Below are positions 4,678 through 11,671 of a DNA stretch of 20,429 nucleotides, piece by piece; the stretch's first letter is position 1; every line of letters begins with the position of its first letter. The DNA is from a virus. Taxonomy: Duplodnaviria > Heunggongvirae > Uroviricota > Caudoviricetes. A program made the position numbers and the translations under genes. Location: positions 1-20,429 of IMG/VR virus record IMGVR_UViG_3300045988_007995; one strand, 5' to 3'. The notes under the pieces are model-generated. The model searched no databases. It was not told where the DNA came from and saw only the letters and a program-made list of their open reading frames with translations.

Positions 4678-4974
4678 ATGCCAGCGCCTCTGTATGGTGC
4701 GGATGACCCGCGCAACTGCTCCGGTAGCTCCAAGGCGGAGGTGCTGGAGAATATCAAAAACAATTTCGACGCGTTTCTTGCTCTGACACCAGAAACAAAA
4801 GCAGAACGGATGTACCGACGCGATATACAACTCGCGCTAAAACAGGAGAAGGACCGAACAAACGAAACAGCAATGAGACCGTTGCGAAAAGCGACAATAG
4901 ACAAATTCCCTGAATATATCGACCCGCGCCTGCGTAATTACCGCTCACGTTATGGTGCTATCAGTAATGACTGA
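4678..4974 (+). CDS. hypothetical protein (98 aa)
   Basis: ORF in series with flanking plus-strand genes; weak RBS; no recognisable motif. Confidence 0.45.
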
Positions 4975-4984
4975 GGAATTTACC

Positions 4985-5149
4985 ATGAGAGGACTTGCAT
5001 ACAATCCCGGCATTCTTCCGGCAGAAATGATTATTCGCCAACGCGTAAAGCCAATGCCATCGAGAGAGGAATTGCTTAAGAGAAATTCTTTTCCGTCAGT
5101 GAATCAAAACAAATATCTGAATGCGATGTTGCGGAGTGGGAAGAAATGA
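4985..5149 (+). CDS. hypothetical small protein (54 aa)
   Basis: ATG at 4985 preceded by GAGGAA (4974-4979); ORF-track frame 4952-5149; stop overlaps next start (ATGA at 5146). Confidence 0.4.
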
Positions 5150-7272: not shown

Positions 7273-7546
7273 CCTGCAACTTGCCGTTAAAGGTGAATAC
7301 TTCGATGCCATGATTCGCGGAGAGAAAACGGAAGAGTATCGCCTGTGTAATGACTACTGGAATAAGCGAATTATGTTCCGCGAGTATGACCGCCTGATTA
7401 TCACAAAGGGATATCCGAAGCGCGACGATTCCAGCCGCAGAATTGACGTCCCGTATGACGGATATGAAATCAAGACAATCACACATCCGCACTTCGGCGA
7501 TAAGCCGGCAAAGGTGTTCGCGATAAAGGTGAATATTGATGGCTAA
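7265..7546 (+). CDS. small PUA-like (ASCH/DUF3850-type) protein, tentative
   Basis: GTG at 7265 preceded by AGGAGG (7251-7256); 93 aa; YFDAMIRGEKTEEYR pattern reminiscent of ASCH/DUF3850 proteins (recollection only). Confidence 0.4.
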   Translation: MANLQLAVKGEYFDAMIRGEKTEEYRLCNDYWNKRIMFREYDRLIITKGYPKRDDSSRRIDVPYDGYEIKTITHPHFGDKPAKVFAIKVNIDG

Positions 7547-7841
7547 ATCAGCAGCAGAGCGCAAAGCCGCTCAGAGAGCCAGACAAGCTGCATCTGGTGT
7601 GCGTAAGCTGGAAATTGTGCTTGATGCTCAGGAAATTGAAATGCTGGAGCGTAACTGTGCCACGCGTCGCCCCGGGCGTGCGCCTTACGAATTTGGTGAG
7701 TATATAGCGTTACTGATCCGCCAGGATGATGCACGCGTGCACGGGCGTATAAAATCGATCAGCAGAAACGTTGCGGTAAGTGCGGCGAGAGAGTTCCCGT
7801 TAATTCATGCCCGTGTAATGGTGACTCGGAATGCTGGGTGA
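7539..7841 (+). CDS. hypothetical basic protein (100 aa), last gene before the packaging module
   Basis: ATG at 7539 after AAGGTG, overlapping previous stop; Arg/Ala-rich N-terminus; no HNH or other motif seen. Confidence 0.5.
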   Translation: MAKSAAERKAAQRARQAASGVRKLEIVLDAQEIEMLERNCATRRPGRAPYEFGEYIALLIRQDDARVHGRIKSISRNVAVSAAREFPLIHARVMVTRNAG

Positions 7842-7871
7842 CTAAAGGCTGGCATGAAACGAAATTAATAG

Positions 7872-7885
7872 CGTGACATGTCACG
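7872..7885. repeat. perfect palindrome CGTGACATGTCACG (copy 1 of 3 of the GTGACATGTCAC core)
   Basis: Exact dyad symmetry read directly; same 12-bp core recurs at 10138-10149 and 10531-10542. Confidence 0.9.
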
Positions 7886-7925
7886 AGTAGATTATGCATG
7901 ATGAATTTGATGGGTTTTGAATACT

Positions 7926-7951
7926 GCCGCCAACTATGGCGGCTTTATTTT
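7926..7951 (+). terminator. intrinsic terminator between the early operon and terS
   Basis: Hairpin GCCGCC-aactat-GGCGGC (7926-7943) followed by TTTATTTT. Confidence 0.7.
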
Positions 7952-7958
7952 GCATGGT

Positions 7959-7987
7959 ACTATTACCACAACGGTAACTATTACCAC
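7959..7987 (+). repeat. two exact 11-bp direct repeats ACTATTACCAC immediately upstream of the terS start
   Basis: Copies at 7959-7969 and 7977-7987 (18-bp period), ending 8 nt before the predicted terS ATG. Confidence 0.85.
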
Positions 7988-7994
7988 GGTGGTT

Positions 7995-8591
7995 ATGATG
8001 CCTGCTGAACCTAAAACCTATAAACGCAAATCAACGCAATTTAAGCCACTAACAGCAATGCAGGAGGCTTATTGCCAGTCATACATCAAAACGCCTGAAA
8101 ACCAGACTCAGGCAGCGATTAACGCAGGATTCTCCCCAAATACAGCGGCAGTTAAAGCCAGTCTCATGATGCGCGATGAACGCATTCAAAAACGGATTGC
8201 CGAGCTGATGGAAGAGCGCAACAAACGAATGCGCGTCAGTGCTGATTACGTTCTCATGCGCCTGGTGGAGATCGACCAGATGGACGTGATCGACATCCTC
8301 AACGACGATGGGAGCCTTAAGCCAATCCGCGAGTGGCCGAAAATCTGGCGCACTACGCTTAGTGGCTTTGATCTGTCATCGACCATCATGAACATGAACG
8401 AGGATTCGATAGAGACAATCCTCAAAAAAATTAAATGGCCTGACAAGGTGAAGAACCTCGAACTGATTGGTAAGCACGTCGACGTCAACGCATTCAAAGA
8501 ACGCCTGGATGTTAATGTGAATGTGACAATTGCTGATCGCATAGCGGCAGCCAGGAAGAGACTGAAAGAACGTCAGGATGGCAATCAGTGA
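7995..8591 (+). CDS. terS: terminase small subunit (P27-family-like)
   Basis: Located immediately upstream of and overlapping (GTGA) the large terminase gene; start placed at ATG 7995 (MMPAEPKTYKRK...) because the ORF-track extension from 7917 spans the terminator and direct repeats. Confidence 0.65.
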   Translation: MMPAEPKTYKRKSTQFKPLTAMQEAYCQSYIKTPENQTQAAINAGFSPNTAAVKASLMMRDERIQKRIAELMEERNKRMRVSADYVLMRLVEIDQMDVIDILNDDGSLKPIREWPKIWRTTLSGFDLSSTIMNMNEDSIETILKKIKWPDKVKNLELIGKHVDVNAFKERLDVNVNVTIADRIAAARKRLKERQDGNQ

Positions 8592-10104: not shown

Positions 10105-10133
10105 ATAAAACAAAGCCAGCTCATAGGCTGGCT
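10105..10133 (-). terminator. minus-strand intrinsic terminator downstream of the opposite-strand gene pair
   Basis: Hairpin AGCCAGC-ctatga-GCTGGCT followed on the minus strand by TTGTTTTAT; protects terL from antisense read-through. Confidence 0.5.
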
Positions 10134-10137
10134 GTTT

Positions 10138-10149
10138 GTGACATGTCAC
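10138..10149. repeat. palindrome GTGACATGTCAC (copy 2), 4 nt downstream of the gene A stop codon
   Basis: Exact 12-bp palindrome; flanking context CTGtTTGTGACATGTCACGGtGTTA nearly identical to copy 3. Confidence 0.9.
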
Positions 10150-10153
10150 GGTG

Positions 10154-10486
10154 TTATTTCGGTAGATTGTGTTTGGCATTCGACTCGTCTATCACGTAAC
10201 GCATTGCAGTTCGACCGAGATTACCAGGATCTTCATGCAGACTCACTCGTGCCTTTAGGAGCACACATTCAGCCTTGACATAGTTTGCTGGAATTATTCC
10301 TACCTCGGCATTTTTAAATGCCTCCTTCACCGCCTCACCGTTGTACTGACCGCCAAGCAACTCTGTACATGTCAGGTTGTTATGGATAATTGCAAGGAGA
10401 TCTTTAATCTCTTCACGCAGGTTTACAATCGCCATCGCGGCATTGATAGCTGCGGCATAGCGCTCAGCTGCAGTCTTCTCTTTCAT
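10154..10486 (-). CDS. hypothetical 110-aa protein (opposite-strand insert gene A)
   Basis: Minus-strand ORF; start placed at MKEKTAAERY... (ATG complement at 10484-10486) preceded by AAGGTGA; the only long ORF in this interval on either strand. Confidence 0.55.
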   Translation of the reverse strand: MKEKTAAERYAAAINAAMAIVNLREEIKDLLAIIHNNLTCTELLGGQYNGEAVKEAFKNAEVGIIPANYVKAECVLLKARVSLHEDPGNLGRTAMRYVIDESNAKHNLPK

Positions 10487-10498
10487 GATTTTCACCTT

Positions 10499-10525
10499 AA
10501 AAAAATGCCCGGCGAATCGGCGGGC
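10499..10525 (-). promoter_or_regulatory. conserved hairpin plus T7 tract directly upstream of gene A RBS (copy 1 of duplicated 5' element)
   Basis: Minus strand reads GCCCGCCGATTCGCCGGGCATTTTTTTAAGGTGAAAATCATG; terminator-like stem GCCCG/CGGGC then U-tract, immediately followed by the RBS. Confidence 0.5.
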
Positions 10526-10530
10526 TGATT

Positions 10531-10542
10531 GTGACATGTCAC
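10531..10542. repeat. palindrome GTGACATGTCAC (copy 3), 4 nt downstream of the gene B stop codon
   Basis: Exact 12-bp palindrome in context CTGaTTGTGACATGTCACGGcGTTA. Confidence 0.9.
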
Positions 10543-10546
10543 GGCG

Positions 10547-10969
10547 TTAGAAGGTTATTTTATCGAATGCGGCGTTGATTGCCTTGGCGTCCTGCTCAGC
10601 ACCAACCACATCAAGTAAAGATCTTTTACTAAGCACTTCAGCCAGGCATTGTAACTTCATGTTGTATAAGTTTTCGCGCATGTAATCATCATCACTTTTT
10701 TCTTTGGCGTATACAGCGCGAGAAATATCAAACACATTGCCTTTTTCCATTTCAGTTTTCTGCGCTGAAATCCAGTCATGGCAAGTAACTCCTATTCCAT
10801 GGTCATCGCTAAGCGTTAACCCGGCAAGTCGCTCACCTGGAATTGCTTCACAAAGCATTTCATTTCCTGCAAAAACACCATAAAAAATTGAGTCATCACC
10901 CTGAACAATGCGTACATATTTGCACGGCCATTCATTTAGATATTTAGCTAGCATGTCGGCTGTTTTCAT
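10547..10969 (-). CDS. hypothetical 140-aa protein (opposite-strand insert gene B)
   Basis: Minus-strand ORF; start placed at MKTADMLAKY... (ATG complement at 10967-10969) preceded by TAGGTGA; upstream ORF-track extension crosses the hairpin/T-tract and is rejected. Confidence 0.55.
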   Translation of the reverse strand: MKTADMLAKYLNEWPCKYVRIVQGDDSIFYGVFAGNEMLCEAIPGERLAGLTLSDDHGIGVTCHDWISAQKTEMEKGNVFDISRAVYAKEKSDDDYMRENLYNMKLQCLAEVLSKRSLLDVVGAEQDAKAINAAFDKITF

Positions 10970-10979
10970 GATCTCACCT

Positions 10980-11005
10980 AAAAAAAATGCCCGGCGAATC
11001 GGGCG
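10980..11005 (-). promoter_or_regulatory. conserved hairpin plus T8 tract directly upstream of gene B RBS (copy 2 of duplicated 5' element)
   Basis: Minus strand reads CGCCCGATTCGCCGGGCATTTTTTTTAGGTGAGATCATG; about 40 nt alignable with copy 1. Confidence 0.5.
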
Positions 11006-11045
11006 AACTGGAAGCAATGAGTTATGCCTTCCGTGGCTGTACTGG

Positions 11046-11085
11046 TTTACAGCATGAAGCCATCGCAATGGCGTCATGCTGTAAA
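11046..11085. repeat. 40-bp near-perfect nested palindrome
   Basis: TTTACAGCATGA-aGCCATcgcaATGGCg-TCATGCTGTAAA: 12-bp outer arms with a 5-bp inner dyad. Confidence 0.85.
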
Positions 11086-11124
11086 AAGGGCGGTGATAGT
11101 CCTTCAAGGGAAACCATCACCGCC
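11083..11124 (-). terminator. minus-strand terminator 43 nt downstream of the tRNA
   Basis: 9-bp stem GGCGGTGAT/ATCACCGCC with 18-nt loop, followed on the minus strand by CTTTTT. Confidence 0.5.
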
Positions 11125-11244: not shown

Positions 11245-11671
11245 AACGCTGAGAGCACTTAGCCTGTTAAGGCGCCACACTTTGTCGCGGCTCCATAAAT
11301 GCTCTCATCGTTGTACCCTCGTCTCTTCCGAGGCGTCACACCGAATCGCCGGGATGGTGAATCCCCGTGCGCGGAATAAAACCGCTCGACTTGCACATTC
11401 CGGCTACCTGGTTCGTTTGCCACAGCCAGGGAGGGTGCCCCTTAAACGTATCCAGACCGCTATCGGCGCATGTGCCATACGCCGTACTGCTCAAAATAAA
11501 AGCTCACTCCACCTGTTCAATTTAACGACAAGCCAGTCAGGTTAGTAACCGGAATGAACTCTTTGGTTACCTGAAAGGTAATAATTTGTGCGTTAAATGT
11601 CAACTACCTACGATAAATAAATCATATGTGGTTAAATTGGTAATAATTTAATTGCGTACGGAGTCATTGAT

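Follow-up and report, generated by a model that had tools for sequence, protein, structure and literature searches.

The window analysed here (the whole stretch of DNA, 20,429 nucleotides) is assigned by its sequence to an epsilon15/phiV10-like (Uetakevirus) prophage of E. coli, a temperate podophage. It shows 98% identity to the O157 typing phages 9 and 10, phiV10, TL-2011b and ZX5, and approximately 80-85% identity to the Salmonella phages epsilon15, SPN1S and SPC32H, all of them Uetakevirus. The segment is carried by 651 of 5426 complete E. coli genomes (approximately 12%).

The junction considered below lies on the plus strand between a gene of the gp49/p55 family (phrog_536, 7536-7876) and terS (7998-8591), which encodes a small terminase subunit of the Terminase_2 family (Pfam PF03592, 7.4e-30). 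terS is followed by terL, whose product had no match in a sequence search of PDB. The first-pass annotation described three elements in this junction, and all of them were found again. The perfect 14-bp palindrome CGTGACATGTCACG was confirmed at 7872-7885 by direct reading. The terminator at 7926-7951, on which scan and folding agree, is the hairpin GCCGCC-AACTAT-GGCGGC with TTTATTTT behind it. A repeat search identified ACTATTACCAC in two exact copies, at 7959-7969 and 7977-7987, with a spacing of 18. By rough arithmetic, the number expected by chance is approximately 0.01 for a 14-bp palindrome in 150 bp and approximately 0.001 for a pair of exact 11-mers within 30 bp; all three features exceed chance for a stretch of 150 bp. 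The view of the junction as structured and functional, with a genuine terminator and candidate protein-binding repeats bearing on the expression of packaging genes, is upheld. The 150-bp length ascribed to the gap is not, as it was inflated by a 1-nt frameshift in the upstream gene. Similarly, the repeats are placed correctly, but their distance of 8 nt to the ATG of terS was counted to 7995, whereas the start codon is most likely at 7998, since epsilon15 has a single ATG at this position and two natural variants (L024, L070) destroy the ATG at 7995.

Upstream gene, terminator and candidate promoter

The upstream gene has AAA at 7766-7768 in the window and in one relative (L017) versus AAAA in 56 relatives. 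For this reason the mechanically defined ORF ends at 7841, whereas the homologues in phiV10 and epsilon15 run to a TGA corresponding to positions 7874-7876 of the window, inside the palindrome. The phiV10 homologue p55, which is also a homologue of epsilon15 gp49, matches the PHROG family phrog_536, "transcriptional regulator", at 1.5e-54. The gp49 homologue has no match among Pfam families and no sequence match in PDB. In NCBIfam there is a weak match to the LexA-regulated protein YbfE family with E = 0.05, below the cut-off. The AlphaFold2 model of gp49, which is of low confidence (pLDDT 61.6), contains helices at residues 30-40 and 52-67 after an extended segment. The weak match and this secondary-structure pattern are the basis for proposing, tentatively, a ribbon-helix-helix domain; the gp49-family protein may have such a domain together with a Cys-rich C-terminal one.

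Between the palindrome and the terminator there is an 8-codon ORF on the plus strand, MHDEFDGF* (7894-7920). In one lineage (L020) a 70-aa ORF starts 9 nt past the palindrome and ends with ...YDEFDGL* 5 nt before the corresponding terminator. The 8-codon ORF represents the start codon region of this 70-aa gene, found in other prophages, joined to its last six codons. It was considered as a candidate leader peptide or attenuator and judged to be a deletion remnant; its E. coli variants include Gly-to-Val and Phe-to-Leu substitutions and a 1-nt deletion. Only synonymous changes were observed in it in four genera.

The terminator has a stem of seven pairs, six of them GC, preceding the TTTATTTT tract (-14.5 kcal/mol, z = -3.55). 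The homologous stem-loop in the epsilon15 record (39646-39672) is annotated as a terminator. The structure is kept in most lineages, and the changes in L014 are G-U-compatible. This plus-strand hairpin is a rho-independent terminator that ends the rightward early operon. An Rfam match to rseX (26.8 bits versus the gathering score of 50, E = 0.39) was rejected as a chance match driven by the terminator.

Immediately downstream, 93 related loci contain the pattern TGnTA(C/G/T)TAT (consensus TGnTAsTAT) abutting TAC[CT], with variation mainly at the n position. In every lineage this extended -10 element either directly precedes site A, the first of the two dyads described below, or shares two bases with it; the copy in the window is TGGTACTAT on the plus strand at 7955-7963 (TGgTACTAT). 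An extended -10 element can function without a -35 box. Conserved across genera, it is a predicted promoter of the terS-terL operon, from which transcription would start near 7970, producing a 28-nt leader with GGTGG as the likely Shine-Dalgarno box. It has no recognisable -35 box and was not called by the consensus promoter scan.

Paired dyads upstream of terS

The "direct repeats" are, from their sequence, the left halves of two abutting 17-bp dyads with the consensus ATTACC-N5-GGTAAT. Site A is ATTACC-ACAAC-GGTAAC (7962-7978). Site B, ATTACC-ACGGT-GGTTAT (7980-7996), abuts site A and overlaps the Shine-Dalgarno box of terS (GGTGG, 7988-7992). Each site has one mismatch to the perfect dyad, in the right half-site (GGTAAC and GGTTAT, respectively). 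The exact 11-bp repeat exists because similar bases precede each of the left half-sites. At up to two mismatches the window contains four dyads versus 0.59 expected, and no shuffled sequence reached four. One of the operator-like dyads, GTTACC-TGAAA-GGTAAT (11566-11582), is situated upstream of the gp3 homologue and portal operon and matches the site 2931-2947 of epsilon15.

The conservation of these elements was considered in TerS-linked loci from 13 lineages of approximately ten genera (Pseudocitrobacter, Citrobacter, Erwinia, Klebsiella, Scandinavium, Superficieibacter, Pseudescherichia, Buttiauxella, Samsonia, Enterobacter). The 80 IMG/VR loci that were found via TerS and kept are near-identical to the window and informative on microvariation only. 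In site A the half-sites are near-invariant in the 13 lineages and are combined with nine different spacers. Site B is kept just before the ATG, overlapping the Shine-Dalgarno box; several lineages have a degenerate version of it, and ST512-KPC3phi13.3 has almost lost it. Sites A and B are spaced 18-20 nt apart, depending on the lineage. In three cases (L006, L008, BUCT554) the dyad pair stays with terS though the upstream gene, the palindrome and the terminator have all been replaced. The exact 11-mer is confined to the version of E. coli and Klebsiella; in other genera only TATTAC is common to both copies. Natural E. coli variants disrupt the 11-mer at positions 7960, 7979 and 7987, leaving the half-sites untouched. 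Since the half-sites are kept and both the spacers and the 11-mer are free to vary, the conservation agrees with a DNA site for a dimer rather than an 11-bp repeat unit.

Several observations point to the prophage repressor Rep. In the RefSeq record of epsilon15 (NC_004775.2) the sequence ATTACCAAAACGGTAAT at positions 12-27 of the record, just ahead of terS, is labelled "protein_bind: repressor, lysogeny"; it corresponds to positions 7962-7978 of the window, that is, to site A. All seven epsilon15 sites annotated in this way are perfect ATTACC-N5-GGTAAT dyads. SPC32H shares these perfect sites, one of which is at positions 11-27 of its genome, ahead of terS. The repressor gene itself is outside the window, and the sites flanking it were considered in related phages. 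In epsilon15, three annotated sites separate the repressor gene from the leftward early operon, and more are found toward the rightward operon. The flanking dyads are at 32478, 32554, 32616, 33340, 33357 and 33387 in epsilon15 and at 31952, 32014 and 32726 in phiV10; the pattern is similar in BUCT554 and SPC32H. In these four phages there are two or three copies on the leftward side of the repressor gene and more on its rightward side, and dyads also precede terS, gp3, the tail fibre gene, the lysis genes and a mid-early gene. All nine phiV10 sites with at most one mismatch are intergenic versus an intergenic genome fraction of 6.7% (binomial p of approximately 3e-11). At the phiV10 PL promoter, TTGACA-17-AATTAT, one dyad falls on the -10 box and start site, and a perfect dyad lies 62 bp upstream.

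The experimentally studied Rep of SPC32H is identical to gp38 of epsilon15 in 194 of 198 positions. The repressors of epsilon15 and phiV10 are 42% identical overall, and share the N-terminal domain including NLVNRW, which is taken, from the sequence, to be the recognition helix. SPC32H Rep is a tetramer when bound to its palindromic sites, and one tetramer is enough for repression (PMC9638917; PMC9986798), which fits the abutting dyad pair. An abutting pair is also present at OR of epsilon15 (33340 and 33357). In phage ZX5, endolysin and holin transcription fell by more than 99.9% when the repressor was overexpressed (PMC9782041). Thus the two dyads upstream of terS are candidate operators of Rep, the best-supported of the factors considered. 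This identification, including the predicted binding of Rep, rests on the GenBank annotation and the genomic distribution of the dyad. The operator reading is already essentially known, as a repressor site before terS is annotated in a related phage.

The candidate operators agree with those of epsilon15 and SPC32H in their homologous position directly before terS and after the corresponding terminator, in the common 17-bp dyad with a second, weaker dyad abutting it in both, and in the genome-wide occurrence of dyads at PL, PR and the starts of later operons. They differ in that each site of the window has one mismatch, that the exact 11-bp direct repeat is limited to the E. coli/Klebsiella lineage, and that the cognate repressor would be of the phiV10 type, 42% identical, with the operator role predicted here from sequence. 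As in lambda, several dyads flank the repressor gene and overlap promoter elements, and adjacent sites suit one oligomer. Unlike lambda, there are extra operators before structural, packaging and lysis operons, and Rep is a tetramer inactivated by an antirepressor rather than by RecA-stimulated cleavage (PMC9638917; PMC9986798).

Alternatively, a positive late regulator or a Cro-like protein might bind the dyads in place of the lysogenic repressor, and would switch on or tune the packaging operon in lytic growth. The lack of a -35 box in the terS promoter is typical of activator-dependent promoters, the dyads precede several late operons (gp3/portal, tail fibre, lysis genes), and a gene of the gp49 regulator family lies directly upstream of the junction. 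However, the dyad clusters at PL and PR surround the repressor gene and cover -10 boxes and start sites, which is the classical layout of repressor and operators. The terS dyads lie over and downstream of the -10 element, in a position suited to repression, not activation. Moreover, the depositors of epsilon15 assigned the dyad sites to the repressor, and the motif that tracks genes of the gp49 family is the palindrome GTGAC-N2-GTCAC, not the ATTACC dyad. This alternative, with either protein, is unlikely. The earlier suggestion of a late-activator site survives insofar as a transcription-factor site does lie at the start of the packaging operon; as for the factor, the prophage repressor is better supported than an activator. 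Still, the operators could be shared in lytic growth, with a Cro-like protein or some other factor as the ligand that matters then.

Another possibility, also raised in the first-pass annotation, is that the paired repeats form a pac- or cosB-like site where the small terminase assembles to start packaging. The pac sites of phages P22, Sf6, SPP1 and P1 are situated in or beside the small-terminase gene. The repeats here are directly 5' of terS and thus resemble these sites and lambda cosB, being short repeated motifs beside the small-terminase gene, and the dyads remain linked to terS when everything upstream is exchanged. The genome of the related phage Tyrion is reported to be terminally redundant and circularly permuted (PMC5754475), so that cohesive ends are unlikely in this phage group and its packaging mechanism needs a pac site. 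A literature search on the packaging mode of Uetakevirus yielded nothing specific beyond this genome note. However, unlike pac and cosB as they are generally known, the motif is multi-copy and shared with the immunity region: each genome has the dyad in no fewer than nine other intergenic places, among them the operator positions that flank the repressor gene. The dyad keeps its sequence even as identity between TerS proteins falls to 66%, and the 11-bp direct-repeat unit is not conserved. The starts of the deposited genomes vary, corresponding to positions 7877, 7897, 7923 and 7952 of the window, and reflect annotation convention, not mapped ends. Deposited ends were therefore rejected as evidence for cos or pac, as phiV10 starts inside the palindrome, at the base after the stop codon of the last annotated gene. 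The conserved unit is an inverted-repeat dyad present in many copies at operator positions, and recognition of the repeats by TerS is very unlikely. The interpretation given in the first-pass annotation is thus partly supported overall.

Palindrome GTGAC-N2-GTCAC and the gp49 family

The core of the palindrome, GTGACATGTCAC (7873-7884), overlaps the true stop codon of the gp49-family gene. The window contains three exact copies, starting at 7873, 10138 and 10531, versus approximately 0.002 expected. The second copy (10138-10149) lies between the stop of a minus-strand gene (10154-10537) and a minus-strand terminator with the hairpin at 10114-10133. The third one (10531-10542) falls between the stop of another minus-strand gene (10547-11107) and a GC-rich hairpin (10507-10525) that has a T-run on the minus strand. 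Epsilon15 and SPC32H have three exact copies each, phiV10 has two plus one with a single mismatch, and BUCT554 has two plus the central variant GTGACCTGTCAC. In these four phages, three positions are conserved: one follows the gp49-family gene, one separates terL from a convergent gene resembling gene 66 of Sf6, and one comes behind the last structural gene. The third copy of the window follows the second minus-strand gene in the interval between terL and gp3.

At every copy in the window and in the four phages the order, in the direction of the ending gene, is stop codon, palindrome, terminator. The hairpins differ from copy to copy, and the adjoining palindrome is identical. In a sample of 108 distinct contexts from IMG/VR, a terminator is present within 40 nt in 41 cases (at 0-4 nt in 29 of them), and in 20 of the 108 a gp49-family gene ends at the palindrome. 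Of the other 50 contexts, many are probably chance or coding matches. The palindrome GTGAC-N2-GTCAC was also found at or beside the stop codons of distant homologues that are 34-66% identical to gp49, in ZF40, phiKO2, Kpn74, PhiR46_1, Yersinia vB_YenM_56.17 and a Vibrio phage. The arms are invariant in these phages, and the centre is AT, TG, GC or AG. In ZF40 and two further loci (L011, L118) the palindrome is fully non-coding, hence its conservation is not explained by coding constraint. There is no palindrome at the stop codon of the gp49 homologue in Vibrio K303 and in an Aeromonas phage, and in BUCT554 no co-variation was seen between the copy adjacent to gp49 and the other copies.

The conserved arms with a free centre indicate a sequence-specific dimeric protein. 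The palindrome would thus most probably be bound by a dimeric regulator, for which the gp49-family protein is the leading candidate. It is conceivable, although we regard this as tentative and more doubtful than the operator prediction, that GTGAC-N2-GTCAC and the gp49-family protein form an undescribed gene-plus-site cassette controlling termination or read-through at operon ends. If so, the cassette spans podo-, myo- and siphophages of Enterobacterales and Vibrio, and in epsilon15-like phages the protein would bind the copies directly ahead of operon-end terminators and control, for example, the passage from early to packaging genes or a neighbouring antirepressor promoter. A full-text literature search for both motif strings and a search of Rfam revealed no described family with the palindrome motif. 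The sole part of this analysis that may be new is the association of the palindrome with the regulator gene.

Several other roles of the palindrome were considered and rejected. It is ruled out as a cos or pac site, as it is not unique. The CRP consensus is TGTGA-N6-TCACA, and the palindrome does not conform to a CRP-like site, its spacing being 4, not 6. Finally, scan matches for the palindrome as the -35 box of a promoter for a short RNA are no more frequent than chance.

The palindrome marks the ends of genes and operons just upstream of terminators, and is in this respect similar to mosaic-junction boundary elements and to the Q and nut modules of lambda; like boundary elements, it survives exchange of the neighbouring modules. 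It differs from all of these in that an invariant palindrome is combined with differing adjacent hairpins and is tied to phrog_536 across podo-, myo- and siphophages.

The arrangement of the junction also resembles the Q-PR'-tR' region of lambda, where a regulator gene is followed by a promoter-like site, a short transcript, a strong terminator and the late genes. By analogy, the upstream regulator could load RNA polymerase at a palindrome-based promoter with GTGACA as the -35 box, and the polymerase would then pass the terminator at 7926-7951 and reach the late genes. The scan indeed produced GTGACA-18-CATGAT at 7873-7902, and epsilon15 has GTGACA-17-TAAATT. However, the promoter match with GTGACA is at the chance level (one found versus 0.9 expected). 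The gp49 homologue matches no Pfam family and hence no family of Q antiterminators, and ZF40 has both a gp49 homologue and a separate gene for a Q-like antiterminator. The other copies of the palindrome lie 0-4 nt from terminators, which leaves no room for a promoter. We consider a late switch of this kind highly improbable.

Regulation at the boundary of the early and packaging operons

Overall, it is fairly likely from the sequence that the early-right operon meets the terS-terL operon at this junction, which would be equipped with a terminator, a promoter, predicted Rep operators and a separate palindrome element. Rightward early transcription would stop at the intrinsic terminator (7926-7951). 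A weak sigma-70 promoter with an extended -10 element, TGnTACTAT (7955-7963), would serve the packaging operon separately, with the start near 7970. The dyads at 7962-7978 and 7980-7996 would cover the edge of the -10 element, the start site and the leader up to the start codon. By binding across both sites, a single Rep tetramer would make the promoter inaccessible and stop read-through. In the lysogen this would keep the terminase genes off until Rep, an HTH_XRE protein, is removed by the antirepressor Ant, itself under LexA control. Least probable of all is that the inverted repeats act in RNA, with a leader hairpin sequestering the Shine-Dalgarno box of terS and controlling translation: the RNA 7955-8005 does fold (-16.9 kcal/mol, z = -2.5) with CCAC paired to the GGUGG of the Shine-Dalgarno box, but most of this fold is upstream of the predicted transcription start, the half-sites in relatives are conserved as sequence, not via compensatory changes, the spacing of sites A and B varies between 18 and 20 nt, and the dyad recurs where no start codon follows.

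The prediction of Rep operators at this boundary corrects a tempting mis-annotation: in a very common family of E. coli prophages, the repeats adjacent to terS are predicted repressor operators, not packaging signals. It also supports direct control of the packaging, head, tail-fibre and lysis operons by the immunity repressor in epsilon15-like phages, rather than by a lambda-style cascade alone. Such direct control is relevant to the prediction of induction behaviour and to the engineering of reporter phages of the phiV10 type. Finally, the function of a widespread family of "hypothetical" phage regulators could be approached through the palindrome with which the regulator gene is associated.

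Further copies of the palindrome and of the operator-like dyad

The terL-gp3 interval of the window contains two exact copies of the dispersed element GTGACATGTCAC, to which the 14-bp palindrome before terS (7872-7885) also belongs. Both copies (10138-10149 and 10531-10542) are situated after the stop codons of reverse-oriented genes and before minus-strand terminator hairpins. The genes in question, 10154-10537 (phrog_27507, resembling gene 66 of Sf6) and 10547-11107 (phrog_4846), respectively, encode hypothetical proteins. The palindrome was also observed in five IMG/VR contigs that have no relation to the window (L119, L138, L148, L167, L205), where it lies within arrays of repeated half-sites, GTGACA(T)/TGTCACG, that look like iterons or multi-site binding regions for a protein recognizing the half-site of the palindrome.

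The operator-like dyad, a predicted site of the prophage repressor Rep, occurs as GTTACCTGAAAGGTAAT at 11566-11582, approximately 90 bp upstream of the operon of the gp3 homologue and portal genes. It is the counterpart of the "repressor" site 2931-2947 of epsilon15. A weak match with two mismatches, ATTACCGCTCACGTTAT, was found where ORFs 4678-4974 and 4952-5149 meet (4937-4953), and it is possibly due to chance.

The regulator gene, the short ORF and the start of terS

The gene of the gp49-family transcriptional regulator upstream of terS (ORF 7536-7841) is frameshifted, and the Cys-rich C-terminal part of the product is lost. The frameshift is caused by the loss of one nucleotide in the A-run at 7766-7768, which reads AAA instead of the AAAA of 56 relatives; among the relatives compared, this state is common only to the window and L017. 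Either the prophage lineage carries a genuine inactivating mutation, or the deletion is a sequencing error in the homopolymer.

Directly past the palindrome there is an ORF of eight codons (MHDEFDGF*, 7894-7920) preceded by a Shine-Dalgarno-like sequence. It is kept in four genera, yet it is not intact in every E. coli copy. It is a remnant of a 70-aa gene found in L020-type prophages. In Rfam, the region from the palindrome through the terminator (7865-7950) matches the Hfq-binding sRNA rseX below the threshold (26.8 bits vs. the gathering score of 50, E = 0.39), probably by chance and due to the terminator.

The 5' end of terS contains a tandem pair of 10-mers, ATAAACGCAA and ATCAACGCAA (8020-8039), most of which is kept in epsilon15 as AAACGCAAATCAACGCA. 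The pair could be purely coding (KRKSTQ) or relevant to the pac site of the phage.

An extra gene in some relatives

Some relatives, namely Enterobacter phage BUCT554 (L099, about 745-830), L102 and L103, have an extra gene between the gp49 homologue and terS. A LexA box, CTGT-N8-ACAG, overlaps its strong promoter (TTGACT ... TATACT), which begins 6-8 bp past the palindrome; the centre of the palindrome would then be near position -50 of the promoter. This promoter resembles that of the LexA-controlled antirepressor described in Salmonella phage SPC32H.
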